Positions 2,471-20,359 of a DNA stretch of 64,000 bases are shown here, in pieces. A model generated the notes under the pieces. That model was not told the origin of the DNA, did no database searches, and saw only the letters and a list, made by a program, of their open reading frames with translations. The DNA comes from Phycisphaerae bacterium. Its GTDB lineage: Bacteria > Planctomycetota > Phycisphaerae > SM23-33. The stretch's first letter is position 1. Every line of letters starts with the position of its first letter. The position numbers and the translations under genes are program-made. The DNA lies in NCBI GenBank assembly GCA_046541875.1, contig JBKHCL010000003.1, positions 598 to 64,597 on the forward strand, written 5' to 3'.

Positions 2471-3047
2471 TGAGACGGTGAGAAAAGTAAGGTCTTTATG
2501 TCCGGCCCGAAGATGCAATGTTTGCGGGTCTACACGAGGGAAGCCAAGCGTCTTGGCCGCAGACGTCTGATTCCAACTGGGCCGCTCCGCTCTGCTCTGC
2601 AGTTTCCCTGCCGGTCATCCGCAGCGTTACCCCCAACATTTCCTCTGCGCCTCCCACCGCAAGAGCAGTTCTTCCGCAGCTTCTTCAGGTTGAGGCCCAT
2701 CTTCGCCGGGCGGGGCGTCGCGACAAGCCATCGGGTTCGTCCGTCTTCGGGAGGGGCTTCACTGCGTTTCGTCCCGGCAGGGCGATGTTCCTGGCCGGGC
2801 AAGGCGATCGGGTCATCGTGGCTGCCCGGATCCGCGACGAGACCGAGGCGATGCGGGAAACGAGATAAGAAAAAACGCGATTACGCCAAATCGGGGCGGT
2901 GCCTTCGGGGCGTCGCCCTGTTTGTATATGGGGGATGGAGCGGAGTTCACGGATTCTTCAAAACTCCTTTTCATTGACGCTGAAATCGCTACACTCTGTG
3001 GTCCCGGCGATATCGCTGAAACCCGCAGAGACAGGATCTCAACCGGC

Positions 3048-3815
3048 ATGCAGAACGAACCCGACAATACAGGCCAGCCCAAACCCCAGCCCCGCGGCGA
3101 CGTGCTGATCGAGGCCCGCGACGTTGAACGGGTCTACAAGACCGGCGATACGTCCGTGTACGCCCTGCGGTCGATCGACCTGGAGATCCACCAGGGCGAG
3201 TATCTCTCGCTGATGGGGCCTTCCGGGTCGGGCAAGACGACGTTCTTCAACATGGTCGGCGCCCTGGATTTTCCCACAGCCGGCGAGGTCCGCATCGGCG
3301 GGCGGGACCTGCGGGAGCTCTCCTCGGGGCAGTTGGCGTATCTGCGTTGCGTCAACATCGGTTACATCTTCCAGAACTACAACCTCATCGAGGTTTTCTC
3401 GGCCTTGGAGAACGTCAAGCTGCCGATCAAGATCCGCGGCGCCGACGACGACGAAGCCGAGGAGACGGCCGCTGAGCTGCTCACCCGCGTGGGTCTGGGG
3501 CATCGCCTGGGGCACTTGCCCGGTGAGCTTTCCGGCGGTCAGCAACAGCGGGTGGCCATTGCCCGCGCGTTGGCGAACAATCCGAGCCTGGTATTGGCCG
3601 ACGAGCCGACCGGCAATCTGGACTCCGGCACCGGGCACGAGATTGTGCAACTGCTCAGCGAACTGAGCGATGAACATGGCGTGACGGTCGTATCGGCGAC
3701 GCACGATCACCGCATGCTCGATGTCTCCGACCGCGTGGTGTATCTGCGGGACGGGACGGTGGAGCGGATCGTATCGCGTTCGGATCTCAATATTTCGGTC
3801 GGATCGGTGGGTTAG
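3048..3815 (+). CDS. ABC transporter ATP-binding protein, MacB/LolD/FtsE-type (ATPase 1)
   Basis: Walker A GPSGSGKTT, Q-loop, signature LSGGQQQRVAIARAL, Walker B LVLADEPTGNLD and H-loop ATHD. Paralog of the ATPase at 15516-16286; both have a ~20-aa N-terminal extension. Start taken at the internal ATG (MQNEPD...) by analogy with the paralog; the RBS is weak. Confidence 0.9.
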   Translation: MQNEPDNTGQPKPQPRGDVLIEARDVERVYKTGDTSVYALRSIDLEIHQGEYLSLMGPSGSGKTTFFNMVGALDFPTAGEVRIGGRDLRELSSGQLAYLRCVNIGYIFQNYNLIEVFSALENVKLPIKIRGADDDEAEETAAELLTRVGLGHRLGHLPGELSGGQQQRVAIARALANNPSLVLADEPTGNLDSGTGHEIVQLLSELSDEHGVTVVSATHDHRMLDVSDRVVYLRDGTVERIVSRSDLNISVGSVG

Positions 3816-3888
3816 TAAGCTGTTTGAGGCAGACTCACGGCGGGCCGCCGGTGTCCGTCGTTCTTCCACGAGACGAAGGTAGAAACGC

Positions 3889-6837
3889 ATGAAGTGGTCT
3901 CATCTGGGCACGATTCTCCTCGGGCTGGTTCTGATTGCGATTCTGGTTCCGTTGTGCCAGTTTCTCACCCAGATGACGGTCAACGTGGACGCCGAGACGT
4001 CCACGCCGGTCGCCTGGGCGGTGGGTATCGTTTTCAGTCTGTTGCTGGTGTTCGGTACGATTCGCGCGATCGCCCGGACCCGCCGGATCGACAAGCCCAA
4101 CATGGTGCTGCTGTACTGCATGCTCACGGTGGCGATCCCGGTGATGAACATCGGGCTGGTCCGCCAGGTGTACATGTCCATGCAGGCGGGCATGCACGAG
4201 TACTTTCTTAACGGGAATAACACCTACCGCACCCAGGTGAACAATCTGCGTCGCGGTTGGTTCCCGGTGGTTCCCACGCGCGAGGGGTTTGCGTGGCTCA
4301 AGGCCGATCGGCTGCTGAACTTCATGGAAGACACCGAAATGGCGTCCCAGCAGCGCAAGGCCGAGTCGAAGCTTCGGGGGCTGGTGGTCAAGGAATCGCA
4401 GGCCCGTCGCCTCCGGCAGGCCGCCACCCAGCCGGCGACCACTCAGCCGACCGCAACCCAGCCCGCGGATGCCAACGCCGCGCCGGTCGACGGGCAGGTC
4501 GACGCCAACGAGCACACCCAGGCGCTGCAGTGGGTGGCCAAGCTCCGGGCCGACCAGGCGGATGCGTTTCTCGTGGAGCGATCGCGCTGGACGTCGGTCG
4601 ATCTGAAATCGCTCGATCTGCTCAAACCGCTCCGCCGGAGGCAGCAGGAAGCCGGCCAGGTCAGCCGTGAAAACCTCCAGAAGCTCCCGGAGATGCTCAA
4701 GGGCATCGATGAACTCGAAGCCAGCCTGCTGGAGGGGAACTGGAACTCGGGTCTGATGGACCAGAGCACCCGCGAACGCCTTTTCGCCCAGTTCCCCGAT
4801 TTGCGAACCCCCGAGGCACGCCGGGAGCGGATTGCCCACTTCGCCGACCAGGCCGACCGGATTGGCCGGATGGTGGCGATGCTTACCACATCCGACCGCA
4901 CGCAGTTGCGGTCGGCGTTGATGGACGACTACCTCCAGCAGTACGCCACCATGCCGGATCATGAAGTGCGAGCCATGCAGAACCGGCTGGTGTATCGCAT
5001 GAAGACCTCTTCCCGTACGGACATGGTGAAGATGGACGGCTCGGGCGGCAAGGTCAACCAGTTCTTGGACGGGTTCCGCAACGGGCTCTGGGCGAAGCTC
5101 CAGGACAAGTCAGCCGTCAAGGAACTGACGGTCCGGGACCGCTTCGAGAAGTCGGCCGACGATCTGCCATGGCACCTCTGGGCCAAGCCGATCGTCATGT
5201 GGACGTCGCTGTTCCTGGCGATTTTCATGCTGCTGATGTGCGTCTCGGAATGGCTCCGCCGCAAGTGGATCGACCGCGAAAACCTCGCCTTCCCCCTGGT
5301 GGAAATCGCCGACACGATGATTCGTCATGACGCGGACATCGAAAACGCAGCCGACCTGTATCACCCCCAGCCTCGGAAGCGTCCGGTCAACCCGGTGTTC
5401 ATGATCGGCTTGCTGATCGGCCTGGTCTGGGTGGGCATGGAGGCGCTGGGTCATTACGGTTTCCTCACGGGCGATTACCAGGCGACGTTCAGCGTTTCCA
5501 AGGAACTGTTCACCGGCAATACGCTGAAGAACGCCGACAAGGTCTTCCTGGTGGTCTCGCCGATCATTCTGGGGCTGGGGTTCCTCATCAGCCTGGAGAT
5601 CAGCTTCTCGGTGTGGGTGATTTTCATCATCTATACGATCATCGTGATGATCGGGAAGAACACCTACCCGGACCTGAAGGACAGCCTCTTCTCCGGCTGG
5701 GCCGGCGGGAGGCAGTACCCGTTCCCGATGGCGCAGATGCTGGGGGCGTCGTTGTGCTTCTCGGCGATCGTCCTGTTCAAGACTTTCCGCGGCTCCAAGC
5801 AGGCCAAGACCACCGCCTCGGACGATTACTTCATCCCGCCTCGGCTGAACTTCATCGGAATGGTCGTGCTGCCGATCGTCATTCTCGCTCTGTTGTGGCA
5901 TCACGGGGTGGGGGAGGGCATCGTGGGCGTGCTGTTCATCGCCCTGATCGGCCTGCTGGCGTTCGTGCAGATGATCACGGCTGCCCGCGTTCGTGCGGAG
6001 ACCGGCCTGCATACCCAGCACGTCTCGTACGAGTTCACGAAGATCCCGATGGTCTTCGGTATGACCAGCCTGTTGGGTTCGCGCATCTTCTCGCTGTTCG
6101 TGACGGTGGCGTTCCTGCCGTTGACGCTGCTGTTCCGCACGATCCCACAGCACCTCGAAAACATGGAGCTGGCCAGGCGAAACAAACTGCGCCTGCGCAC
6201 GGTGGCGGTGGCGTCGCTGACGGCCTTCATCGTGGCGGTGGTCGTCGGCATGGTTGTCCTGCCGATCTGGGCGTACGCCTACGGCGGCGTCGCCTACGGC
6301 GAAGGCGCCGAGGACCAAGGTCAGACCTCGCGCACCATCGCCCACTACTCGCTGTGGATTTCGCACTACCTCGGTGAGGAGGGGCTCGACCAGTGGACGC
6401 AGGTCCACTGGATCCGCATCTGGTTCATGCTGGGCGGCTTCGGCGTGGTGGCGGTGCTGTCGCTGCTGCGAAGCCGATTCCTGCAATTCCCCCTGCATCC
6501 GATCGGATACCTGCTGATCCTGTTGAGTATCTACTACGTATGGGTGTCGCCGTATTACAAAGGAACCTCGGACGCGCCGTCCGAGTCGTCCTGGCTGTGG
6601 GGAAGTATCTTCCTGGCCTGGTTGCTCAAGAAGGTGATCATCAAGTACGGTGGCATGACCACCTACCGACGGGCCAAGCCCTTCTTTATCGGGCTGGTGG
6701 TCGGTGCGGTGCTGTGTGTGTTCCTGTTCAACGCGACGGATCTGGTCTGTTCGCTGATCGGTGCTGACGCCAAGGACCCGGGCGGATTCATCAAACCCTT
6801 CCTGGACAAGCACCCGTTCAGCCCGGCGTTCTATTGA
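3889..6837 (+). CDS. Large polytopic membrane protein, OPT-superfamily-like (982 aa), with a ~300-aa hydrophilic insertion
   Basis: GAAGGTAG RBS before the ATG. At least 14 hydrophobic helices. The N-terminal TM pair and the C-terminal segment (...GSIFLAWLLKKVIIKYGG..YRRAKPFFIGLVVGA) are collinear with the 684-aa paralog at 12766-14817. The N-terminal pattern resembles oligopeptide-transporter (OPT, TC 2.A.67) first helices; that family assignment is from memory, not a search. A Q/R/E-rich loop (aa ~100-440) contains short TQPA repeats. Confidence 0.8.
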   Translation: MKWSHLGTILLGLVLIAILVPLCQFLTQMTVNVDAETSTPVAWAVGIVFSLLLVFGTIRAIARTRRIDKPNMVLLYCMLTVAIPVMNIGLVRQVYMSMQAGMHEYFLNGNNTYRTQVNNLRRGWFPVVPTREGFAWLKADRLLNFMEDTEMASQQRKAESKLRGLVVKESQARRLRQAATQPATTQPTATQPADANAAPVDGQVDANEHTQALQWVAKLRADQADAFLVERSRWTSVDLKSLDLLKPLRRRQQEAGQVSRENLQKLPEMLKGIDELEASLLEGNWNSGLMDQSTRERLFAQFPDLRTPEARRERIAHFADQADRIGRMVAMLTTSDRTQLRSALMDDYLQQYATMPDHEVRAMQNRLVYRMKTSSRTDMVKMDGSGGKVNQFLDGFRNGLWAKLQDKSAVKELTVRDRFEKSADDLPWHLWAKPIVMWTSLFLAIFMLLMCVSEWLRRKWIDRENLAFPLVEIADTMIRHDADIENAADLYHPQPRKRPVNPVFMIGLLIGLVWVGMEALGHYGFLTGDYQATFSVSKELFTGNTLKNADKVFLVVSPIILGLGFLISLEISFSVWVIFIIYTIIVMIGKNTYPDLKDSLFSGWAGGRQYPFPMAQMLGASLCFSAIVLFKTFRGSKQAKTTASDDYFIPPRLNFIGMVVLPIVILALLWHHGVGEGIVGVLFIALIGLLAFVQMITAARVRAETGLHTQHVSYEFTKIPMVFGMTSLLGSRIFSLFVTVAFLPLTLLFRTIPQHLENMELARRNKLRLRTVAVASLTAFIVAVVVGMVVLPIWAYAYGGVAYGEGAEDQGQTSRTIAHYSLWISHYLGEEGLDQWTQVHWIRIWFMLGGFGVVAVLSLLRSRFLQFPLHPIGYLLILLSIYYVWVSPYYKGTSDAPSESSWLWGSIFLAWLLKKVIIKYGGMTTYRRAKPFFIGLVVGAVLCVFLFNATDLVCSLIGADAKDPGGFIKPFLDKHPFSPAFY

Positions 6838-6857
6838 TGCATGAAGGAGTGGTCGAC

Positions 6858-9800
6858 GTGACTCGGCGACTGATAACCTGTTGTTTGGTTCTGCTGGCTG
6901 CGTGGGCCGTTGCGCAGGGCGGCGAGCGGAACGAGAAAATCCAGAAGGACATCGATGTCCCGGTGCGAAAGCAGTTGGAGTCCTACTCGGCCCTCTCGCC
7001 CCAGGGGCTGGAGGCGCTGGACCGCGTCTCCTCCTCCGCTGCGCTGCGCGCGGAGATGGAGGAGATTCTCAAAGGCAACCTGTCCGTCGGTGCCAGGCAG
7101 GTCGATGCCAACGGCAGGGCCCATATCCACCGTTACCTGGACAGGAAGTTCGATGCGCTCTCTGAGCGGGGACTTCGGAAACTGGGCGCGATTACCGGAC
7201 AGGTGGCGGTCCCCGTTTCGATCCGCAACGCCCGCTCGCTCGGCGAGAAAGGCAACGCCCGAGGCCGATCGAGAGTGACCATCGACGGGGTGCGCTGGGC
7301 GGACGGCAACAGCTGTCACCTGCTGCCGATGTGGCCCAACGGCCCGATGCCGTCGATCTGTCCGGTCGGTGGGTTGAGCGGCCCGCTGGTGTACGTCGAA
7401 GACGGTTCGTGGGAAGCCCTGCGAGGCCTGCCCCTCGAGGGCGCCATTGTGCTGATGGACTTCCGTGGCGGACGACGCTGGGCGACACTGGCCTCCATGG
7501 GGGTTCAGGGCGTGATCGCCATCGAGGACGAGCACGTTTCCCGCGACAAGGCCGAGCGGTGGTTCGTGAATACTCCGGTCCCCTTGCCGCGGTTCTACGT
7601 GGACCGCAAACGCGGGCAGGAGCTGATCGCCCACGCCACGCGCAAGGAGTACCCCGAGAAAGGCGATCAGTGGCGCATCGTCAAAGGCAAAGCCGCCACC
7701 ATGCACGGTGGGAACGTCTACGAGCAGCGTCGCTTCGAGTCGCCCTTCGTGTACCTTCCACCCACCGAGCCGATCATTCACACGGTCATGGAGCGCGAGC
7801 TGCTCCGTCGTCTGGGCGACAAGTACGGGGTGGCCGGCGAAGACATCGCGGTGTTGAACAGGCTGGGAGACTCGCCTCCCAAGGCCGGTACCAAGCTGAA
7901 GATTCCCGGAAAGGACGAGACCTACGAAGTCAAGGAGCAGGATCTGCTCAAGCAGATCGCCGCATCTTACGAAGTCTCCCTGGACGCTCTGCTCAAGGCC
8001 AATGACCTCGATAAAGACAAGGAAGACCAGGGCATCTCGGCGGGTACGAAGCTGACGATTCCGAACATCAACCAGTCGCTGGTGATTCTCGTTCGGATTG
8101 ACAGCTGCTCGGTGGTTCCCGACGCCCCGCACGGCGCGAATGCGGCAGGCAACATCGCTTTGGCGATCAAGCTGATGGAGCATCTGGCGACCGACCCGTC
8201 GGTGATCCGGCGCAAGGGCGTGGTGTTCGGGTTCCTGGACGCCGAAGGGCTTGGTGGGCGCACCAGCCGGGCCGTTACCGAGTCGATGCTGCTGAAAGAG
8301 AACAAGCTCAAGCTTCGCCCGAAGGAAGACCCCGCCAACCGCATCAAGCGGTATCGCCAGGTGGTGGCTTGGCTGGAGGCCGACCAGAGCGGCAAGATAG
8401 GCTACGACACCGCGAAGTGGTTGGCCGACGAGTGGTTGTACTCCCGTCTGGAATCGTTGCGAATCCGTCTGGCGGAGGAGCGGACGCGCCTGCGCCGACG
8501 CTTGCGTGAGCTTCCCGAGGACTCCGCCGAAGCCAGGGAAATCGAAACCCGTCTCGACGAGATCAAGCTCCTTGTATGGGGCAAGGACCCGCGCGAAGCC
8601 GATGGCGGGCTGGTGGACCTGCGTGATGAGACCATCAAGAACACCAGCCTCTCCTATCCCGAGCGGACCAAAAGATTTCTACGGACGGTTCCCCAGACCA
8701 TCGCGGAGGCCCGCGATCAGGATATGCCCGAGCTGGCGTTGCCGACGCTCCAGGCGCGACTCAAGGCCGAGCTTGCCGAGGAACAGGAAAGCTACGATAT
8801 CTCGCAGGGCAACCTGGATGTGATCGGCAAGATCCTCGATGCGATGGTTCCCAGCAAGGATCAGCCTTCCCTCGCCTACCAACTGGACCTTGCCGACGCG
8901 ACCCATTCGCTGGGGATCGTGTCCGAGAACAAGGACTTCCGCCGCAATCACCCGGCTGCGGGGAACGCCAAGGCCTTGGCCAAGCGATACCGCAAGGTGC
9001 TGGCGTACGCAGCCGTCCAGGCGGGTTGGCCGGAAGACTTCCTTATTCTGACCAACGACGACGTGCTGCATCACGCCCTGATGAAACTCCAGTCACCGCC
9101 GATTTATCCGGAGTTCTGGGCGGGCGTGGACGTGTCGCTGTTGGCGTTGAGCACGCAGAACGATACCAAGCAGAAGCTGGACTCACCACGGGACACCCTC
9201 GATCGGGTCAAGTGGGAGAACCTGCATATCCAGGCTCGCAGCGCGATGTTACTGCTTCGGCTGGGGCTGGAAAGCCCGCTGGACTCCCTGCCTCCGGCGA
9301 AGATCAACAAGAAACCGAAATTCGGTCGTCTGACCGGCAAGATCGCCGAGTTCAACATGCGATCGGGCATTGACGCCCAGGACCCGATCGCCGGGGCCTA
9401 CGTGTACTACCCGGCCTTGAAGAAGGATCATGGCACTCACGCGCATAACACGCTCGCCTACCGCGGAGCTCGCCGCGGGATTCTGATGATCACGCCGCTG
9501 AACGGCATCTATACGCTGCCGCTGGAGGACGCCTCCTACGACGATGCCCTGTTGCTGTACTCGTATTTGCTGGACAGTGAAACAGGCCTGTTCAACAAGG
9601 TCGCCGACCAGGGGCAGATCGGCAGCCAGAGGGCAAACCCGAAGTTCAAGCTGCTGGACCTGGAGGAGACTGAAAAGAAGATCGTGCTCACCGAGGTCTA
9701 CCCGTGGATGTTCTTTCCGGGCGTGGACCCGCGGGAGTACAAGGTCGTCGGCGAGACCGAGAGTCAGTTCCACCTCGTTGACGTGGTCCGCAACGGCGAT

Positions 9801-12764
9801 CCGAAGCATTACGCCCTGGATGCTCCCCGAGGGGACTACAAGGAGCATGACCTCGACGCGGTCGTGGTCTACATGCCCAACGGTAGCCGGGCTCGGGTGG
9901 CCGTCCAGTCGGCGGTCACGACCAAGATGGTGCTCAGCGGCTGGGTGCATCCCGAGAGGTTCCGCCATCGCGGAAACGGGTACGTCATCGGCGACCTTGG
10001 CTCGAAGGAGTCCAAGGCGACGCTGATGGAATCGAAGCGTACCCAGGCCCGCGTGGAGGCCGACGTCACCGGGGAGAGCTTTGACGAGGCCGCCTGGGAG
10101 AAGGAATTCGAGGCGTGGTACCAGGCACAGATGGCCAAGCCCGGCTGGGCGCGAAATCTTACGCTGTCCCAGACGCCGCTGCACATTGCCGGGGACATGC
10201 TGATCCTGGCTGAGCGTCGTCAGCGGGTCTACAAGGAATTCGGTATCAAGGACCAGGGCGTTGCCCACGCCATCGAACGAGCCCGGGAGAAGTACGCCCG
10301 CGCCAAGGACGCCCTGAACCGCAAGGACTACCAGAGTGCCAACGGAGCCGCCCGCGAGGCGTGGGGCATCCTGATGAAGTCCTACGGACAGGTATTGGAC
10401 CTGGGTCGCGAGGCGGTCTTCTCGGTGGTGGTCCTGATGGCCCTGTTGCTGCCGGCGAGCATGTTCCTGGAGAAGCTCACTATCGGGCGGAAGGGCATTG
10501 TGGGAAAGCTGGCGGGTACGACCGTTTACTTCGTGCTGGGCACGACGTTCCTGAACTTCTTTCACCCGGGATTCAAGATCTCGGTTTCGCCGTTCATCAT
10601 CATGATCGCCTTCACGATGATCCTGATGTCGCTGATCGTGCTGATTATCTCGTATCAGCGGTTCGACGTCCTGCTTCGCCGGGCCCGCGCCGCCGGTGGC
10701 GAGGTGGAGAGCGAAGAGATCAGCCTGACCAGTTCGCTGGCGACGGCCTTGTCGATGGGCGTATCGAATCTCAAGAAACGACCGGCCCGAACGTTCCTGA
10801 CCGTTTTCACCGTAACGGTGCTGACCTTCTCGATCGTGACGTTCGTGTCGGTGCGCGGCGACGACCAGGTGGAGCTGTTGCCGCTCTCGCTGGACGAGGA
10901 TCTCTCGGGCCGCACCGTAAAGCCGATCCCGCCGAAATACCGCGGCGTGATGTTCCGCGAGTTTTTCTGGTTGACGATGGAGGACAACTTCGTGGACGCG
11001 GTGGAGACCGAGTTCGGCGCCCGCTATGACCTTGCCGTTCGCGCCCATCGCATCCAGGTGGAAGGCGGCAACAACGCCGACCGCGAAGGGATGAACCAGG
11101 AGAAGCTCACCCGGATCACGGGCACCCCGAAGAATCGCCCCACGTGGGTGGCCACCGGCATCATGGCGTTTCAGCCCGCCGAGCGGAAATTCAGTCATCT
11201 CCAACAGGCCGTCAGCAACGAGTCCTGGTTCCGCTCGGCCGACCCCATTACCGGACGGGTCGAGGACCGCGACGTAATCATCATCCCCGACAACGGGGCC
11301 GAGGCGTTGGGCATCACCGAGGAGAAGATCTTCCGTGAGGATCCCAACGGGCAGATGGTGCGTCGGGCTCACGATGAACTGCCGAAGGTGCGCCTGATGA
11401 ACCGCCAGTGGCGCGTGATCGGGATCCTCGATACGGACCTGGCCAACCGCCTGCGGGACGTCAACGGCAAGAGCCTGGCGATGGTGGACTACCTTCGCAG
11501 CGCGTTCGCCTCGGGCGCCGCCGGTGGTGGTCACCTGGCCAACGAGCCCGAATCCTACCACATGTCATGGGAAGAGCTCGTCATCGTCCCGTATGCCGCC
11601 AAGAACGACGTGAAGGCCGAGACCCGCTCGGTGGCGATCCGCCTGCGCGAGCCACAAGAGGTCACCGTCGAGCCGGGCGAGTCGCTGGCGGACCTGGCCA
11701 AGCGGTATCTGGGCAGCAAGCTACGGGCCAGGGAGATCCTCCAGGCGAACGAATCGCTCGACGACGCCGCCGACATCCAAGCCGGCATGACGGTGCAGAT
11801 TCCCGGCGACGACATGGAGACATTCCGAAACGACGTGGCCTTGCGTGTGAACAAGGCGATGTTCGGGCAGGTCGGCGGGCAGATCTCGCTGATCACGACG
11901 CAGTCCCAGCAGAGCGTAGCGGGTCTGGCGAAGGTGATCGTTCCGGTCATCCTCTGCGTTCTGATCGTTCTGAACACGATGATGGCCAATGTCGAAGAAC
12001 GTCGCGGCGAGGTGGGCATGCTCGGGGCGATCGGCCTGAGCCCGGCCCAGATCTCGTTCCTGCTTCTCAGCGAGTCGACGGTCTTCAGTGTGCTGGGGAT
12101 CGTGCTGGGCACGTTCATCGGACTGTTGTTCGCGAACGTCGCCTCGATGATCGGCATCCTGCCGGGATTGTCGTTCAACTTCACCTCGCTGCTGTCGATG
12201 GCTTTGGCGGCGGGAACGGGCATCGTGGTGTTGATCGCGACGTTGATTCCCGCCCGCAAGGCGGCGGCACTGGCGGCCCCGAGCGGCATGGCCCAGTGGG
12301 AGCTGCCCGAGCCGTCGGCCGACGGAGACATCTCCTTCGAGCTGCCCTTTACGCTCACGCGGGGCAACGCGGTGGGCATGTCCGCCTTTTTCCGTCGCTT
12401 CCTGCTGAACCACACGGACCCGGCGAGTCCGGACTTCAACTGCCGGGATATCGAGTTGTCGGTTATTGACGAACCCGACGAACAGGCCCTGCGGGTGGAT
12501 GCGGTGATGTGGCTGAGCCCGTACGATCTGGACGTGGCCCAGAAGTTCGCGCTGAAGGTGGTTCCCACCGAGAGCGAGGGCGTCTTCACGGTGGTGATTC
12601 TGCTGCACCGCACCTCCGGTACGGAGGACGCCTGGCTGCGGACCAACTACGGGTTCCTGGACCTGGTGCGCCGGCAATTCCTGCTGTGGCGCAACCTCGA
12701 CAACGATTCACGCAGCGACTACATTGCGGAAGGCGCACAGCTCTTCCAGGAGGCCGCTCAGTAA
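6858..12764 (+). CDS. Giant secreted/membrane fusion protein (~1970 aa): signal peptide, PA domain, M28/transferrin-receptor-like peptidase-like domain, LysM domains, 3-TM linker and a C-terminal FtsX/MacB-type permease module
   Basis: The track ORF starts at TTG 6834, overlapping the upstream stop. A GTG at 6858 lies 9 nt after AAGGAG and gives MTRRLITCCLVLLAAWAVAQG, a clean signal peptide. The ATG at 6837 is an alternative start. PA-like segment LEGAIVLMDFRGGRRWATLASMGVQGVIAI. M28-like segment HGANAAGNIALAIKLMEHLATDP...RKGVVFGFLDAEGLGG. LysM-like segments at aa ~320-400 (e.g. YEVKEQDLLKQIAASYEVSLDALLKANDL...GTKLTIP) and aa ~1600 (VTVEPGESLADLAKRYLG...AGMTVQIPG). FtsX TM1-like KRPARTFLTVFTVTVLTFSIVTFVSV. 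FtsX C-terminal domain VLNTMMANVEERRGEVGMLGAIGLSPAQISFLLLSESTVFSVLGIVLG followed by two more TMs. Confidence 0.85.
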   Translation: MTRRLITCCLVLLAAWAVAQGGERNEKIQKDIDVPVRKQLESYSALSPQGLEALDRVSSSAALRAEMEEILKGNLSVGARQVDANGRAHIHRYLDRKFDALSERGLRKLGAITGQVAVPVSIRNARSLGEKGNARGRSRVTIDGVRWADGNSCHLLPMWPNGPMPSICPVGGLSGPLVYVEDGSWEALRGLPLEGAIVLMDFRGGRRWATLASMGVQGVIAIEDEHVSRDKAERWFVNTPVPLPRFYVDRKRGQELIAHATRKEYPEKGDQWRIVKGKAATMHGGNVYEQRRFESPFVYLPPTEPIIHTVMERELLRRLGDKYGVAGEDIAVLNRLGDSPPKAGTKLKIPGKDETYEVKEQDLLKQIAASYEVSLDALLKANDLDKDKEDQGISAGTKLTIPNINQSLVILVRIDSCSVVPDAPHGANAAGNIALAIKLMEHLATDPSVIRRKGVVFGFLDAEGLGGRTSRAVTESMLLKENKLKLRPKEDPANRIKRYRQVVAWLEADQSGKIGYDTAKWLADEWLYSRLESLRIRLAEERTRLRRRLRELPEDSAEAREIETRLDEIKLLVWGKDPREADGGLVDLRDETIKNTSLSYPERTKRFLRTVPQTIAEARDQDMPELALPTLQARLKAELAEEQESYDISQGNLDVIGKILDAMVPSKDQPSLAYQLDLADATHSLGIVSENKDFRRNHPAAGNAKALAKRYRKVLAYAAVQAGWPEDFLILTNDDVLHHALMKLQSPPIYPEFWAGVDVSLLALSTQNDTKQKLDSPRDTLDRVKWENLHIQARSAMLLLRLGLESPLDSLPPAKINKKPKFGRLTGKIAEFNMRSGIDAQDPIAGAYVYYPALKKDHGTHAHNTLAYRGARRGILMITPLNGIYTLPLEDASYDDALLLYSYLLDSETGLFNKVADQGQIGSQRANPKFKLLDLEETEKKIVLTEVYPWMFFPGVDPREYKVVGETESQFHLVDVVRNGDPKHYALDAPRGDYKEHDLDAVVVYMPNGSRARVAVQSAVTTKMVLSGWVHPERFRHRGNGYVIGDLGSKESKATLMESKRTQARVEADVTGESFDEAAWEKEFEAWYQAQMAKPGWARNLTLSQTPLHIAGDMLILAERRQRVYKEFGIKDQGVAHAIERAREKYARAKDALNRKDYQSANGAAREAWGILMKSYGQVLDLGREAVFSVVVLMALLLPASMFLEKLTIGRKGIVGKLAGTTVYFVLGTTFLNFFHPGFKISVSPFIIMIAFTMILMSLIVLIISYQRFDVLLRRARAAGGEVESEEISLTSSLATALSMGVSNLKKRPARTFLTVFTVTVLTFSIVTFVSVRGDDQVELLPLSLDEDLSGRTVKPIPPKYRGVMFREFFWLTMEDNFVDAVETEFGARYDLAVRAHRIQVEGGNNADREGMNQEKLTRITGTPKNRPTWVATGIMAFQPAERKFSHLQQAVSNESWFRSADPITGRVEDRDVIIIPDNGAEALGITEEKIFREDPNGQMVRRAHDELPKVRLMNRQWRVIGILDTDLANRLRDVNGKSLAMVDYLRSAFASGAAGGGHLANEPESYHMSWEELVIVPYAAKNDVKAETRSVAIRLREPQEVTVEPGESLADLAKRYLGSKLRAREILQANESLDDAADIQAGMTVQIPGDDMETFRNDVALRVNKAMFGQVGGQISLITTQSQQSVAGLAKVIVPVILCVLIVLNTMMANVEERRGEVGMLGAIGLSPAQISFLLLSESTVFSVLGIVLGTFIGLLFANVASMIGILPGLSFNFTSLLSMALAAGTGIVVLIATLIPARKAAALAAPSGMAQWELPEPSADGDISFELPFTLTRGNAVGMSAFFRRFLLNHTDPASPDFNCRDIELSVIDEPDEQALRVDAVMWLSPYDLDVAQKFALKVVPTESEGVFTVVILLHRTSGTEDAWLRTNYGFLDLVRRQFLLWRNLDNDSRSDYIAEGAQLFQEAAQ

Positions 12765-12765
12765 C

Positions 12766-14817
12766 ATGGCTGAGAATTCGGGTAAGAAGAAGGCGTCGGG
12801 CGAGAAGTTCTACGACGCCAAGTTCTCCATCGAGGCGATCCAGCACCACCCCTATGAGAACGGGTTCACCTGGCGGACCGTTCTCGGTGCGCTGTTCGTG
12901 GCGTTCGTGATGCTCCCGGGCGTGATTTTCATGGGGCTGATGATCGGTCAGAGCCTCGGGACTGCCGCCGAGTGGGTGACGATCATCCTCTTCGTGGAGT
13001 TGGCCCGCCGCTCGTTCGTGACGCTGCGGAAGCAGGAGCTGTACATGCTCCGCTACACCGTCGGGTCGCTGTCGCACTTCTCGGGCGGGGTCGCTCTGGG
13101 CGGTGGGATGTTTGCCTACCTGGTGTTCAACCGCTATCTGCGAAACAGCGAGGAATTCCACAACTTCGGCATCGCCCAGGATGTGCCCGACTGGTTCGCT
13201 CCATACGGGGACGCCGCCTATACGAGCTTCCTCAACTCGGTCTGGTGGCCGGTGATCGCCGTGATGGTCGGGGGCATGATCCTCTCGAAGCTCACCTCGC
13301 TTTCCCTGGGATACCTCGGATACAAGCTGACCTCCGACGTCGAGAAGCTTCCCTTCCCGCTGGCCCCGGTTCACGCCGAGGGGGCCATCGCCCTGGCTGA
13401 GCGCTCGCAGGATGAAAACTCCCGTGGCTTCCGGCAGTACTGCTTCTCGATCGGCGTGATCCTCGGTGCGGTGTTCGGCATTCTGTACACGGCGATCCCG
13501 ATTCTCTCCCAGGCGGTGCTCTCCCGGCCGATCCATCTGCTGCAGATCCCGTTCTGGGACTTCACCGAGATGTGTGAGAACTTCCTGCCGGCGGCGACGA
13601 TCACGCTGGGTTCGAACCTGATGCTCCTGTTTCTTGGGTTCGTGCTGCCCTGGCGGATCGTCGTGGGCGGGTTCGTCACCGGCGTGCTGTTCCAGGTGAT
13701 TCTCAACCCGTTCGTATTCCATCCGCTGGGGATGCTTCCTCACTGGGAGCCCGGCAAGGACGCCATCAAGACGCACGTGTCCAACCAGATCGACCTGTAC
13801 CTCTCGATCGGTATGGGGACGGCCTTCGCGGTGGCGGTGCTGGGTATCTACGGAATGATCCGCAGCGTGCTGAAATACAGCAGATCCACCGCCGAGGAAG
13901 AACGATCGGTCGACCTGCGGAACTTCTGGAAACGCGACGTGGAACGTGGCGACCCGCCGACCGGGGCGGCGTTGCTGGTGTGGATCTTCTCGGCGGCGGG
14001 GTTCGTGATACTGTCCTACTATCTGGTGAACTTCCGTCGGGGCGCGATCCTTCCGCCCGAGGAAAGGTTCCCATGGTACTGGCTGGCGCTGTTCGCGTTC
14101 ATCTGGACGCCGATCAACACGTACATCAACGCGCGGATGAGCGGTATTGCAGGCCAACACGCGGGCATCCCGTATATCAAAGAGGCCTTCATCTTCCTCT
14201 CGGGGTATCGGCAGGTGAACATCTGGTTCGCTCCGCTGCCGATCCATAACTACGGTAACATGTCCGACAAGCTGCGGGTCTGTCAGTTAACGCGAACAAA
14301 GTTCTCTTCCATCCTGCGGGCGGAGCTGTTCATCTTCCCGTTGATGTTGTTTGCGTCGTTCATCTTCTGGAACTACATCACCAGCCTGGGCCCGATTCCC
14401 TCGGATCGCTATCCGTTCGTGCAGAAGTTCTGGCCGCAGTTCGCGCAGATGAAGGCGCTGTGGGCGGCCGGCATGCAGGAAGGTCAGTCGCTGCTGATGC
14501 AATCGCTCAAACCCAGTGTGATCTTCACCAGTCTGGGCACGACGCTGCTTCTGTTCATCGGGTTCGGGTGGCTGGGGGTCTCCGCCCAGTATATCTACGG
14601 TGGAATCGGCGGGCTGAACCGCTACCCCCACGAGCCGTTGACGATGTTCCTGGGCGGCCTGCTGGGGCGGTACGTGCTGGCCAAGCGGTTCGGACAGGAG
14701 CGCTGGCAGAACTACGCCCCGATTCTGGTGGTGGGCTTCGGTGCGGGGATGGGCCTCTCGTCAATGATTGCCATCGCCATCAACTTCCTCTGGACTTCGA
14801 TTGGAAGCGGTTTCTGA
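12766..14817 (+). CDS. Polytopic membrane protein, OPT-superfamily-like (684 aa); paralog of the 3889-6837 protein
   Basis: ATG at 12766 two nt after the giant gene's TAA, with AGGAGG upstream. About 14-16 TM helices. N-terminal FTWRTVLGALFVAFVMLPGVIFMGLMIGQSLG...EWVTIILFVELARR resembles OPT-family first helices. C-terminal ...LGGLLGRYVLAKRFGQERWQNYAPILVVGFGAG parallels the C-terminus of the 982-aa protein. Confidence 0.8.
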   Translation: MAENSGKKKASGEKFYDAKFSIEAIQHHPYENGFTWRTVLGALFVAFVMLPGVIFMGLMIGQSLGTAAEWVTIILFVELARRSFVTLRKQELYMLRYTVGSLSHFSGGVALGGGMFAYLVFNRYLRNSEEFHNFGIAQDVPDWFAPYGDAAYTSFLNSVWWPVIAVMVGGMILSKLTSLSLGYLGYKLTSDVEKLPFPLAPVHAEGAIALAERSQDENSRGFRQYCFSIGVILGAVFGILYTAIPILSQAVLSRPIHLLQIPFWDFTEMCENFLPAATITLGSNLMLLFLGFVLPWRIVVGGFVTGVLFQVILNPFVFHPLGMLPHWEPGKDAIKTHVSNQIDLYLSIGMGTAFAVAVLGIYGMIRSVLKYSRSTAEEERSVDLRNFWKRDVERGDPPTGAALLVWIFSAAGFVILSYYLVNFRRGAILPPEERFPWYWLALFAFIWTPINTYINARMSGIAGQHAGIPYIKEAFIFLSGYRQVNIWFAPLPIHNYGNMSDKLRVCQLTRTKFSSILRAELFIFPLMLFASFIFWNYITSLGPIPSDRYPFVQKFWPQFAQMKALWAAGMQEGQSLLMQSLKPSVIFTSLGTTLLLFIGFGWLGVSAQYIYGGIGGLNRYPHEPLTMFLGGLLGRYVLAKRFGQERWQNYAPILVVGFGAGMGLSSMIAIAINFLWTSIGSGF

Positions 14818-14818
14818 C

Positions 14819-15478
14819 ATGGTCACGCGAGAATGGGAAATCGGACAGCTTCACCTTCGCTGGGACCTGGTCTGGTCGATGGCGATGAGCAGCCTGAAGG
14901 TCCGCATGATGCGGTCCTTCCTGACCTGCCTGACCATCACGACGGCCACCGCGTTCATGGCGTATCTGCTCGCCAGCCCGCGGAAAACCGGCGACGTCAC
15001 CGAGATGCAGAGTTGGTTGCTGATGCTCGTTCTGGCGCTGATCGTATCCGGCGCGGGCGTGCTCAACGCGATGCTCATGTCCGTCGCCCAGCGATACCGC
15101 GAGATCGGGACCATCAAGTGTCTCGGCGCGCTGGACACGCTGGTCCTGTGGATGGTGCTGGTCGAATCGGCCATCCTCGGGTTGGCCGGTGCGGTGGTGG
15201 GGCTTTTGGTGGGCCTGCTGTTCTCGCTGCTGCTGGGCATGGCCGATTTCGGGCTGGGATATTTCGCGACGTTCTTCGTGGGCACCATGCCCCCCGAGCA
15301 ACTGCCCGGGTGGCTGGCGTCGACGTTCCCCGACGGGATGAACCGCATGATCTGGCTGCTGGGCACGATGGTCTTCGTGTTCGTGGTGGGCATGGGGCTG
15401 ACCACCCTCGGGGCGGCGATCCCGGCGTATATCGCTTCCAAGATGCCGCCCGTCGAGGCGATGCGGGGCGAGAAGTAG
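14819..15478 (+). CDS. Minimal FtsX-like ABC permease (219 aa, 4 TM, no large extracytoplasmic domain)
   Basis: Start overlaps the upstream stop (TGAcATG). TM1 preceded by KVRMMRSFLTCLTITTATAFMAYLL, a pattern typical of FtsX/MacB TM1. C-terminal MSVAQRYREIGTIKCLGALDTLVLWMVLVESAILGLAGAVVGLLVG matches the FtsX signature region. The TM1-TM2 loop is only ~15 aa. Confidence 0.75.
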   Translation: MVTREWEIGQLHLRWDLVWSMAMSSLKVRMMRSFLTCLTITTATAFMAYLLASPRKTGDVTEMQSWLLMLVLALIVSGAGVLNAMLMSVAQRYREIGTIKCLGALDTLVLWMVLVESAILGLAGAVVGLLVGLLFSLLLGMADFGLGYFATFFVGTMPPEQLPGWLASTFPDGMNRMIWLLGTMVFVFVVGMGLTTLGAAIPAYIASKMPPVEAMRGEK

Positions 15479-15515
15479 CCAACGCACAACGCCCCGCGCG
15501 GGCGGAGAGAATCCT

Positions 15516-16286
15516 ATGACGCAGCAGAAAATCAACTGGTTCACCGACCTCGAAGAATCGGTCGACTATACCGTGATGACCAAGAACGTCACGAAGATCT
15601 ACGAGATGGGCGACACCAGGATCCAGGCGCTGGACAACGTGACGGTCTCCATCCAGACCGGCGAGTACATCTCCATCATGGGTCCGTCGGGCTCGGGCAA
15701 GACCACGCTGTTCAACGCCATCGGCGGACTGATGAAGCCCACCTCCGGCAGCGTCTTCATCGACGAGATCGACGTCGCCCAACTGGACGCCAACGAACTG
15801 GCCTGGCTGCGCTGCCGAAAGATCGGCTACATCTTCCAGAGCTACAATATCGTCAAGGTCATGACCGCCCTGGAGAACGTCGTGCTGCCGATGCTCTTCG
15901 CCGGCGTTCCGGGCGACGAGGCCCAGGATCGCGGCGTGGACATCCTCTCGCGCGTCGGGCTGGGAGACCGCATCCTGCACACCCCCAAGGAACTGTCCGG
16001 CGGCCAGCAGCAACGCGTCGCCATCGCCCGGGCGTTCGCGAACAACCCGGCGATCATCCTGGCCGACGAACCCACCGCGAACCTCGACCTCAAGACCGGG
16101 GCCGAGATCATCCAACTGATGAAGGACATGAACCGCGAGCGCGGCGTGACGGTGATCTGCTCCACCCACGACCACGCCATGCTGGACATCTCCGACCGGA
16201 TCATCTGGATGGAGGACGGGCAGGTCAAACGCATCGCCGACCGCGACGATGTGGACATCAAGGTCGACGTGTTCGAAGAGCAGTAA
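15516..16286 (+). CDS. ABC transporter ATP-binding protein, MacB/LolD/FtsE-type (ATPase 2)
   Basis: GGAGAG RBS before the ATG. Walker A GPSGSGKTT, signature LSGGQQQRVAIARAF, Walker B ILADEPTANLD and H-loop STHDH are all present. Clear paralog of the 3048-3815 ATPase. Confidence 0.9.
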   Translation: MTQQKINWFTDLEESVDYTVMTKNVTKIYEMGDTRIQALDNVTVSIQTGEYISIMGPSGSGKTTLFNAIGGLMKPTSGSVFIDEIDVAQLDANELAWLRCRKIGYIFQSYNIVKVMTALENVVLPMLFAGVPGDEAQDRGVDILSRVGLGDRILHTPKELSGGQQQRVAIARAFANNPAIILADEPTANLDLKTGAEIIQLMKDMNRERGVTVICSTHDHAMLDISDRIIWMEDGQVKRIADRDDVDIKVDVFEEQ

Positions 16287-16393: not shown

Positions 16394-18310
16394 ATGAGGA
16401 CCTCCGCACGCCTGAGACTCTTTGTCGCAATCGTGGCCATCCTGGCCTCCGCTGGGTCAGCCCTGTCGGCCGACCCGCTGGGCCCGTCGGATGCGAACTG
16501 GCCCTATCCCTTCAAGACGGTCAAGACCCACCCGGGCGCCAAGGCGGCCCCCGCTTCCAGCCCCGAGACCTACCCGCACTCCAAGGCGTTCTTCCAGCGC
16601 GCCCGAAAGGTCATCCAGGGTCTCGGCGACGAGGATCTGGGCAAGTGGCGTCGCGGCTGGTTCGCACGCGGCGGGGACCCGGCCAAGTACCTCATCGGGG
16701 CGGCGATGGCCCGGCTGATCGCCGACGGCGACGACGCCCAGGCCCGGAAGTACATGAACGACGAGCGGACCTACAAGGAGCACTACCATTTCGGCACGGT
16801 CAACTGGGCACGGTTCTACCCGCTGTTCGGTGAGAAGGTGCTCTCCAAGGAGATACAACAGAAATTCGCCGATGCAGGCTTCCGGTACGGGTCGTATTCC
16901 TCGCCGCGAGGAACGGAGAATCACAAGGTCATGTGGTGGACCTCCGCCAACGTGCTGCCGTATTACACCGGCAAGGGGCTCTCCCGCCGCTCGGTCAAGG
17001 CGACCCTCCAGCACGGCAAGCAGCAGTTGCGAAGCTACGTCAAGGGCCTGTACAAGGCAGGGCAGGGCGAATGGGACTCGTCCACGTACCTGATGTTCGA
17101 CGTCAACGGCATGTTGAACATTTACGACTTCTCGGAGGACGCCGAGGCCCGCCTGCTCGCCAAGGCCGCCCTCGACTGGTACCTCGCCGGATATGCCCTG
17201 AAGTACACCGACGGGGTCTACTGCGCCCCCAACCAGCGAGGCTACGCGCCGGGACCGGTCGAGAAGATCGCCGACGAGACCGGCTATCTCTGGTGGGGCA
17301 GCCGAGCGAAAATCACCCCCGAAGACCTCTCCAATGCCCGCCACACACTGCACGCGATTACCTCGGCCTATCGTCCCAACAAGGTCATCACGAACATCGC
17401 CACGAAGAACCTGCCCAAGCTGCCGGCCGAGCAGCGCAACACCAAGCCGAACTACTGGCATGGCCTTCGCCTGGAACCCAACCCCGGCGTGTACCACGAG
17501 AGTGTCTACCTCAGCAAGCACTACACAATGGGCTCGCTGTGGAACGGCCATGGCGGACAGATGTCCCGCTTCCAGATCGTCGCCGGCACGCCCGATGGCG
17601 GCGTTCCCTTCACCGGCGGCCACCCGACCGGCTACAAGTACAAAGACGGCGGCGGCAAGTACGACCAGACCGCCCAGGTCGGAGCGGTGCATGTGTTGCT
17701 CTCGCGTATCGCCAAGGACGACCCGGTCGGGTATGTCTTCTTCTCGTTGCCCGAGGGTGTCGAGAAGCCCACGCGCCACGGCGAGTGGTATCTCATCACT
17801 GCCGGCAAGACGTACCTGGCGCTGCTGCCGCTGAGCGAGAAGTCCGAGATCGGCAAGACCGAGTTGTCGCCCAAGCAGAAGCAGCGAAACGCCAAAGCAA
17901 TCGAGCAGGGCAAGGACCCGCGCTACACCCCCAAGCCCATTCTCAAGCTCCACGGGCCCAGCACCGGCTGGGTGCTGGTCACCGGCGACGCCGGCACGTA
18001 CGATTCACCGGATGCCTTCAAGGCGTCCCTGGGCAAACGCAAGGTGGACGTCTCCGGTTGGCCCACAAAGGGGCACGTATCGTTCGTGACGCCTGACGGC
18101 AGAGATACCCGCGTGTCGTACCAGGAAGGCAAGGATCGTCCCGCCGTCGCGATCGACGGAACGGTCGTCGACTACGACCAGTGGGACGCCGTCTACGCCG
18201 GCCCGTATGTCAAACAGGACGACGGCGTGCTGAGGGTTACGGATGGAAAAGACGGGTTCATCGTCGATTTCACCGGCGAGAAGCCCGTCTACAAGCCGTG
18301 GAAGAAGTAG
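16394..18310 (+). CDS. Secreted hypothetical protein (638 aa), possibly a carbohydrate-active enzyme
   Basis: AAGGAGA RBS and signal peptide MRTSARLRLFVAIVAILASAGSALSA. W/Y-rich mature protein typical of secreted glycan-active proteins. No family recognised by eye. Confidence 0.8.
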   Translation: MRTSARLRLFVAIVAILASAGSALSADPLGPSDANWPYPFKTVKTHPGAKAAPASSPETYPHSKAFFQRARKVIQGLGDEDLGKWRRGWFARGGDPAKYLIGAAMARLIADGDDAQARKYMNDERTYKEHYHFGTVNWARFYPLFGEKVLSKEIQQKFADAGFRYGSYSSPRGTENHKVMWWTSANVLPYYTGKGLSRRSVKATLQHGKQQLRSYVKGLYKAGQGEWDSSTYLMFDVNGMLNIYDFSEDAEARLLAKAALDWYLAGYALKYTDGVYCAPNQRGYAPGPVEKIADETGYLWWGSRAKITPEDLSNARHTLHAITSAYRPNKVITNIATKNLPKLPAEQRNTKPNYWHGLRLEPNPGVYHESVYLSKHYTMGSLWNGHGGQMSRFQIVAGTPDGGVPFTGGHPTGYKYKDGGGKYDQTAQVGAVHVLLSRIAKDDPVGYVFFSLPEGVEKPTRHGEWYLITAGKTYLALLPLSEKSEIGKTELSPKQKQRNAKAIEQGKDPRYTPKPILKLHGPSTGWVLVTGDAGTYDSPDAFKASLGKRKVDVSGWPTKGHVSFVTPDGRDTRVSYQEGKDRPAVAIDGTVVDYDQWDAVYAGPYVKQDDGVLRVTDGKDGFIVDFTGEKPVYKPWKK

Positions 18311-20243: not shown

Positions 20244-20359
20244 TCCACGCTGGCGAGCCCCGTCTCGGCGAGATACAATCAGCCCATCGACGCATTCTCA
20301 CCCTCGGGCCTGGTGCTCGGGGGTGAGTGTATTTCCGTTTCCACAACGAGGACGTGACG

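Follow-up and report, generated by a model that had tools for sequence, protein, structure and literature searches.

A conserved gene cluster joining MacB/FtsX-type ABC components to OPT-like membrane proteins in a Phycisphaerae bacterium

The six genes and their products

The window analysed here is a stretch of 64,000 nucleotides from a Phycisphaerae bacterium (positions 598 to 64,597 of contig JBKHCL010000003.1), and our subject is a cluster of six plus-strand genes within it, which encode two ATP-binding cassette (ABC) ATPases (A1 and A2), two FtsX-type permeases (X1 and X2) and two polytopic membrane proteins with a predicted likeness to the OPT/YSL transporters (M1 and M2). The six open reading frames (ORFs) lie where a first-pass annotation had placed them (Table 1), and public annotations of the identical locus, which was recovered in several Phycisphaerae-type metagenome-assembled genomes (MAGs), call the same six genes. 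They are as tightly packed as that annotation had stated, with gaps of 1–73 nt (A1–M1, 73 nt; X1–M2, 1 nt; M2–X2, 1 nt; X2–A2, 37 nt), and an X1 start at 6837 overlaps the M1 stop codon (TGATG). X1 more probably begins at this ATG than at GTG 6858: besides the overlap, ATG 6837 gives the 1975-aa product that three of the six copies recovered have in their annotation, while two copies use GTG 6858 and the last has a shorter call. Residue numbers of X1 given below count from GTG 6858, not from ATG 6837.

Table 1. Features of the cluster and its immediate surroundings, in window coordinates (TM, transmembrane; aa, amino acids)
Feature	Position	Strand	Description	Basis
Hairpin upstream of A1	2892..2920	+	terminator-like; 13-bp stem, 9 GC pairs	consensus match only
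A1	3048..3815	+	ABC ATPase, MacB/LolD/FtsE type; PVC-specific extra paralog	ABC_tran 1.4e-31
M1	3889..6837	+	OPT/YSL-fold polytopic membrane protein, 982 aa	Pfam DUF6785 3.2e-48, DUF6784 3.3e-19
M1 insert	4162..5190	+	all-helical, predicted periplasmic, ∼340 residues	between TM3 and TM4
X1	6837..12764	+	giant fusion: signal peptide, pseudo-M28/PA ectodomain, beta domain, helical stalk, 3 TM, MacB-like FtsX permease, conserved C-terminal domain	
X1 M28/PA-fold ectodomain	7110..9287	+	predicted catalytically dead	two LysM domains inserted at 7773-8066
X1 beta-rich domain and stalk	9321..10409	+	beta-rich domain and helical stalk into membrane	AlphaFold2 secondary structure, residues 822-1184, pLDDT mostly >80
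X1 extra TM segments	10413..10649	+	invariant His-Pro (H1236, P1237)	hydropathy, invariant columns
X1 FtsX/MacB-type module	10746..12257	+	TM1, ∼350-aa periplasmic domain, TM2-4	third LysM at 11658-11807
X1C	12285..12761	+	conserved C-terminal domain, ∼160 aa, predicted cytoplasmic	many invariant columns
M2	12766..14817	+	divergent OPT-family membrane protein, 683 aa	family members' OPT matches
X2	14819..15478	+	minimal 4-TM FtsX permease, 219 aa, without periplasmic domain	FtsX 4.4e-14
A2	15516..16286	+	ABC ATPase; ortholog of single ATPase in other phyla	ABC_tran 2.2e-34
D1	16394..18310	+	∼635 aa	N-terminal hydrophobic segment
D2	18348..20243	+	∼635 aa	N-terminal hydrophobic segment
Hairpin after D2	20297..20327	+	terminator-like	consensus match only

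A1 and A2 are 54% identical (E = 5e-99), and with Walker A and B, Q-loop, LSGGQ, D-loop and H-loop all retained in both, they are catalytically intact as far as motifs can tell. Their top NCBIfam matches are LolD, DevA, MacB and FtsE, with every score under the equivalog cut-off (237 and 222 bits for LolD, cut-off 307.75; 208 and 202 bits for FtsE, cut-off 264.85). X2 passes the FtsX model PF02687 with 53.0 bits (cut-off 25.5), and its TM1–TM2 loop has only ∼14 residues, thus the large extracytoplasmic TM1–TM2 domain is not present.

X1 has an ectodomain of ∼1165 residues after the signal peptide. The profile of the X1 family matches PA-domain M28 aminopeptidases (2ek8, 1.8e-17), nicastrin, transferrin receptor and nicalin, and distant homologs (21–25% identity) bear Pfam Peptidase_M28 (PF04389), PA and MacB_PCD domains. 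Moreover, Foldseek searches with the ectodomain, taken from an AlphaFold model of residues 1-1185 (predicted local distance difference test (pLDDT) 89, predicted template modelling score (pTM) 0.88), returned aminopeptidase, TfR1 and GCPII. Catalytic positions were read off what we take to be the M28 consensus motifs. The catalytic Glu-Glu is found in none of the 32 aligned X1-family members, nor in the X1-like proteins of locus L092 (a Thermoprotei archaeon) and locus L093, and X1 proteins of the Planctomycetes–Verrucomicrobia–Chlamydiae (PVC) clade have lost the HxD histidine and the bridging Asp as well. Hence, the peptidase-like ectodomain of the first-pass annotation stands as an M28/PA fold and falls as an enzyme: the head is, by sequence and model, a pseudo-peptidase. 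X1 also carries three LysM domains (PF01476, 72.6 bits, cut-off 20.9).

The membrane part of X1 begins with a region of two clear hydrophobic segments and a weaker third that the topology requires. In bacterial relatives, H1236 and P1237 of this region are invariant and E1205 nearly so; such conservation of polar residues within the membrane points to a possible functional site. The FtsX module follows (PF02687, 2.3e-14, 53.9 bits, cut-off 25.5), with MacB_PCD (PF12704) detected in its long TM1–TM2 loop only in distant homologs. The C-terminal part of the family profile matches YtrF, MacB, LolF and LolC/E, and the NCBIfam equivalogs FtsX_Gpos (25, cut-off 225) and lolCE (31, cut-off 362) are not reached. 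X1C, which is placed on the cytoplasmic side from MacB topology, has no Pfam match; it recurs in distant FtsX proteins adjoining OPT genes (locus L090, 5e-16; locus L091, 2e-15) and is, judging from these sequences, a signature of this FtsX subfamily.

One model of a candidate defence-associated family recognizes the same module. The X1-like C-terminal membrane module aligns with positions 13-683 of PADLOC PDLC01991, ‘CARF_m8--CARF_LolE_TM’ (E = 9e-45 for X1, down to 3.9e-68 for relatives), the extra TM segments falling on positions 76-188. Both this model and ‘CARF_m8--CARF_Beta-galactosidase_LolE_TM’ strongly match the X1-type membrane module in the window and in L090, L092 and L093. No CARF domain was identified in X1, the isolated X1C fragment and the ectodomain have no PDLC01991 match, and M1, M2 and the X1 ectodomain match nothing in PADLOC; neither CRISPR nor defence genes lie near the locus, and both LolE and FtsX are absent from the 2025 CRISPR classification paper. 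The X1-type module may be reused elsewhere with a CARF-like sensor, or X1C itself may be a CARF-like part. This PADLOC-DB model is the sole prior trace of the system that we found.

M1 scores 164.9 bits against DUF6785 (cut-off 25) and 69.4 bits against DUF6784 (cut-off 26.4). Neither M1 nor M2 matches OPT (PF03169) in Pfam, M2 matches no Pfam or NCBIfam model at all, and the profiles of both found no solved structure by sequence. The AlphaFold2 model of M1 (pLDDT 83, pTM 0.85) has as its only significant matches in a PDB fold search the structures 7wst/7wsr of barley Yellow Stripe 1, HvYS1 (E = 1.8e-5, TM-score 0.60, probability 1.0), the next match having E = 0.19; the YS1 fold is otherwise unique, and YS1 is a homodimer of core and scaffold domains (PMC9691689). 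For M2 the evidence comes from its family, which comprises 815 representative clusters: OPT (PF03169) is matched by 24 of the 51 aligned members (best E = 1.3e-17), and NCBI names one ortholog ‘OPT/YSL family transporter’. M1 and M2 have the motif E-(K/N)-L-(P/A)-F-P in common, and while a BLASTP comparison of the two is not significant (E = 1), hhalign relates the two families with 98% probability over 446 columns (E = 1.3e-13). Archaeal M1-like and M2-like proteins have weak Pfam OPT matches as well. The family matches, the ortholog name, the HvYS1 fold and the homology of the profiles together confirm, at the level of sequence and model, the earlier label ‘OPT-like’ for M1 and M2. The first-pass annotation had also given each component a clear paralog in the cluster, which is true of the ATPases, while M1 and M2 are related at the profile level only and X1 and X2 weakly (7e-4 over 25–50 residues).

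In comparison with OPT/YSL proteins such as HvYS1, the present ones form a fixed pair of distant paralogs beside an FtsX gene, and M1 has a large insert. About 280 of its ∼340 residues interrupt the DUF6785 profile between positions 121 and 122, the model contains helices only, and the periplasmic side was assigned by the positive-inside rule on loop 63-72. M1 relatives outside the PVC clade mostly have 630–720 aa, and the insert was seen in PVC loci only, with the exception of a 1161-aa M1-like ORF in L075, a locus of non-PVC-clade Planctomycetota. Some M2-family members (P0115, P0122, P0128, P0132, P0136 and L095) have a different insert, of 200–400 aa near residue 570, which contains beta-propeller (Reg_prop/WD40) or PDZ domains; one such gene still lies 3′ of an M28+FtsX gene.

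Conservation and evolutionary units

Relatives were collected by scanning species-representative genomes with an M2 motif built from a 13-sequence alignment; at least 551 genomes matched, and the best 80 loci were analysed. The order A–M1–X1–M2–X2–A is kept between unrelated flanks in a 5-Mb genome at 38% M1 identity and also across Opitutales and Phycisphaerae loci. PVC loci retain all six genes, with both ATPases upstream in three Opitutales loci. At ∼40% M2 identity, an X1-like gene of 1450–1950 aa lies directly 5′ of M2 in further groups (Armatimonadota, Abditibacterium utsteinense, Gemmatimonadota, Latescibacterota, Desantisbacteria, Brocadiia, Lentisphaeria/Victivallales and an OP3 bacterium), and the loci of these groups hold one ATPase at most. 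X1 stands beside M2 in 37 of the 49 fully covered loci, an M1-like gene (630–720 aa) is present in 24 and X2 followed by a single ATPase in 13; the distance from the X1 stop to the M2 start is ≤20 nt in 19 of 40 loci. Wherever X2 was found, it nearly always adjoins an ATPase. The 18 non-PVC ATPases all score nearer A2 than A1, and among the loci surveyed the A1-type copy was seen in PVC loci only.

The conservation reaches further than the complete set. A triad of M1-like, M28+FtsX and M2-like genes occurs in a Thermoprotei archaeon and in low-GC lineages, and it is also found where M2 has a beta-propeller insert. On a contig of 43% GC, an 830-aa FtsX protein with X1C adjoins a bona fide Pfam-OPT protein.

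Since non-PVC loci have one A2-like ATPase and the X1–M2 and X2–A adjacencies recur, the evolutionary units are, as gene order indicates, M1–X1–M2 and X2–A. The cluster had been presented as two paralogous three-part modules in permuted order. This description does not survive comparison with other genomes, in which the same four membrane families go with a single ATPase as the sub-clusters M1–X1–M2 and X2–A, and the pattern of two permuted A–M–X modules is, on this comparison, an accident of PVC operon assembly. A stronger version, in which a three-gene duplication produced two independent paralogous ABC systems (A1+M1+X1 and M2+X2+A2), could draw on the make-up of either half, in which an ATPase goes with an FtsX protein and an OPT-like protein, and on the clear paralogy of A1 and A2. 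However, outside the PVC clade one ATPase serves loci that still hold X1, X2, M1 and M2, the conserved adjacencies cut across the proposed modules, and the divergence of M1 and M2 is ancient, being present already in archaea and not tied to the ATPase duplication. Two separate systems are thus largely refuted by synteny, and we consider them very improbable. The second ATPase, the LysM domains (found in 19 PVC loci and in none of the non-PVC X1-like ORFs) and the M1 insert appear to be PVC-specific additions, the long M1-like ORF of L075 aside.

The neighbourhood survey therefore upholds the combination of ABC ATPase, FtsX and OPT-like proteins that the first-pass annotation had picked out. 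It had also been thought undescribed, and the literature searched gave no paper on such a system, nor on DUF6785, DUF6784, an FtsX–M28 or an FtsX–OPT system.

The genes around the cluster are less constant. The only strong plus-strand terminator-like hairpins are the two listed in Table 1; the one at 2892-2920 is a possible upstream boundary of the transcription unit, which may extend to D1 and D2, as the other lies after them. D1 and D2 themselves stand outside the conserved system: neither is related to the other, sequence searches of Pfam, NCBIfam, PADLOC and the PDB gave no match for either, and homologs follow A2 only in the close Phycisphaerae loci L014 and L022. Further downstream on the plus strand, the annotation of the identical MAG locus has a GH2-like protein of 966 aa (20360-23260) and a GH94 glycoside phosphorylase (from 23290), which suggests a glycan-utilisation neighbourhood. 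Upstream lies a gene of the Na+/H+ exchanger family (1007-2470, Pfam 4.4e-41), which is not conserved beside the cluster in other genomes. In the Latescibacterota locus L054 (2520-9927), a TPR protein, an ExbB/TolQ-like protein and a SurA/PpiD-like peptidyl-prolyl isomerase precede M2, with M1 and X1 ∼4 kb downstream; this envelope-biogenesis context is not common to other phyla. A census of Pfam domains in 119 ORFs that flank 22 non-PVC loci gave no common functional theme, only scattered TPR, sulfatase and peptidase matches.

Two small soluble proteins recur outside the PVC clade. A PqqD-like protein (peptide-chaperone/RRE-type, ∼125–160 aa) without TM segment, and hence probably cytoplasmic, is encoded directly 5′ of X2–ATPase in L046 (12893-13369), L023 (445-819) and 12 more non-PVC loci. 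The hosts are Armatimonadota-type loci and a Desantisbacteria MAG, and it was not found in the window or in PVC loci. Between M2 and the PqqD-like gene, ∼15 loci encode a soluble protein of ∼270–350 aa (L035, 12378-13415; L046, 11934-12929; L064, 12204-13007) with the cysteine motif W-x-C-x-x-C ... W-x-C-P-[ED]-S-N ... C-H, which has no Pfam or NCBIfam match. In the window, ORF 2498-2977 was considered as a PqqD-like component and rejected for its spurious-looking composition and the lack of any similarity. One public assembly calls this ORF of 159 aa as a gene; its translation is rich in Arg, Pro and Ser, the terminator-like hairpin lies within it, and it probably does not represent a real gene.

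A putative machine and competing explanations

X1 resembles members of the type VII ABC/MacB superfamily (MacB, LolCDE, FtsEX, YtrF and BceAB) in its 4-TM FtsX fold, whose TM1 and TM2 flank a periplasmic domain, in the MacB_PCD of its distant homologs and in the accompanying LolD/MacB/FtsE-type ATPase. It differs from them by ∼1300 additional N-terminal residues (pseudo-M28 head, stalk and 3 TM) and by the conserved C-terminal domain. Moreover, no MacA-like adaptor, EnvC-like partner or histidine kinase is found here; instead, the conserved partners are two OPT-fold proteins, a partnership that we did not meet in the literature searched. Neither FtsEX nor LolCDE fits: equivalog scores for FtsEX are missed and neither the window nor the flanking-ORF census holds an EnvC/PcsB-like gene, and the LolD and LolC/E cut-offs are not reached. 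What is new is, as far as sequence comparison goes, a type VII ABC system with an unprecedented and deeply conserved partner set. It comprises five protein families, X1, X2, the MacB/LolD-type ATPase (duplicated in the PVC clade), M1 and M2, and that the six genes of the window encode one conserved machine made of these families seems to us probable. The architecture and conservation of the system are well supported; its substrate and transport direction are what we infer from the likenesses described below.

In our model, X1 and X2 would pair as the transmembrane dimer of a type VII ABC system, an asymmetric one in which X1 alone bears an ectodomain. The same ectodomain asymmetry exists within the single chain of BceB. 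The dimer would be powered by A1/A2, and M1 and M2 may heterodimerise in the way that YS1 homodimerises. The ATPase would not pump through the FtsX helices; its work would be mechanical and take place outside the membrane, as it does in other systems of type VII. FtsEX-type systems are described in two papers as signal or mechano-transmitters and not as transporters (PMC7468199, PMC11627006). The dead-peptidase head would serve as receptor in the manner of transferrin receptor, nicastrin and GPAA1. With these proteins and nicalin it has in common the M28 fold (in X1 together with PA), the loss of catalytic residues and the tether to a membrane machine; the X1 head is instead prokaryotic, fused in cis to an ABC permease and, in the PVC version, interrupted by LysM. 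The ligand would have a free terminus and is most plausibly a peptide. ATP-driven movement would then pass it to the OPT-fold pair, which would carry it across the cytoplasmic membrane, most likely inward. In PVC bacteria, the three LysM domains would tether X1 to peptidoglycan and the periplasmic helical insert of M1 may touch the X1 head. A peptide ligand fits with the PDZ/propeller inserts of some M2 relatives, with the PqqD-like peptide-chaperone protein upstream of X2–A in at least 14 non-PVC loci, and with the substrates of known OPT proteins, which are peptides and chelates; these observations leave the direction of transport unfixed. We regard receptor-plus-import as a tentative mechanism, and the conserved machine together with receptor-and-import, taken as one statement, as possible though short of probable.

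The first-pass annotation had proposed cell-wall remodelling or muropeptide handling. In this explanation, the ABC/FtsX pair is an FtsEX-like regulator that controls peptidoglycan hydrolysis or captures muropeptides, the LysM domains and the dead head act as EnvC/PcsB-type activators, and M1/M2 recycle the muropeptides released. It gains from the three LysM domains of X1, from the scores of both ATPases against FtsE (see above), from the capacity of OPT transporters to carry peptides, and from dead enzyme domains that regulate hydrolases, an established theme in papers on DipM and EnvC. However, LysM is confined to the PVC clade, and the core triad occurs in a Thermoprotei archaeon, a lineage without murein, which speaks against a cell-wall role as the core function. 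Neither is any peptidoglycan hydrolase gene conserved beside the cluster, and the FtsE and FtsX equivalog cut-offs are not reached. The system as a whole is therefore probably not devoted to the cell wall, and peptidoglycan handling as its core function is unlikely; the earlier guess describes at best a PVC-specific overlay and may still apply to the anchoring of the PVC version.

Export or extraction is about equally unlikely in our view. Here the cluster would work like MacB, Lol or Bce systems, expelling or extracting a peptide or lipid-linked molecule, with the OPT-fold pair as conduit for cytoplasmic cargo; in non-PVC lineages, the PqqD-like chaperone could present a small modified peptide as this cargo. 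Outward action has precedent, for most characterised MacB-superfamily systems (MacB, LolCDE, HrtBA and BceAB) act outward, or on the outer leaflet or periplasm, and the PqqD-like and Cys-rich soluble proteins stand directly 5′ of X2–A in at least 14 loci of at least two phyla. Yet PVC loci, the window included, have no PqqD-like gene, no precursor peptide or modifying enzyme is conserved nearby, and characterised OPT/YSL proteins are importers (PMC9691689).

We therefore keep receptor-assisted import by one machine as the preferred reading, against which several points must be set. M2 stands alone within 10 kb in 12 of the 49 well-covered loci, and one complete Armatimonadota genome has M1 at a distance of 120 kb from X1–M2; hence linkage of the genes is not obligatory. 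For the archaeal and low-GC triads, a span of 8 kb on either side gave neither X2 nor an ATPase, so that ATP coupling may not be universal; ORFs of the loci were identified by a six-frame phmmer screen at 1e-5, by which divergent partners may be missed. To our knowledge, OPT/YSL proteins function without ABC partners wherever they have been studied. The PqqD-like protein, with its probable cytoplasmic location, fits peptide export at least as well as import. Moreover, subunit interaction, stoichiometry, substrate and direction are all deduced from sequence and analogy.

Should the five families assemble into a single complex, this would be the first example of OPT-fold proteins that work with a MacB/FtsX-type mechanotransducer, and a prokaryotic dead M28 peptidase would be the receptor of a membrane machine, a role that nicastrin, transferrin receptor and GPAA1 have in eukaryotes. 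The Pfam families DUF6785 and DUF6784 would then have a context, and so would a divergent OPT branch that counts at least 815 representative clusters. More doubtful than the mechanism above is its boldest form, an ancient machine common to Bacteria and Archaea, whose type VII ABC mechanotransducer has a pseudo-peptidase head like nicastrin or transferrin receptor and is joined physically to an OPT-fold elevator heterodimer. If true, this would be a new transport class, namely ATP-driven, receptor-assisted loading or gating of a secondary-transporter fold. The system is widespread, as at least 551 species genomes, mostly of poorly studied phyla, match one M2 motif, and because the cultured Abditibacterium utsteinense has the X1–M2 pair, the question is accessible to experiment.

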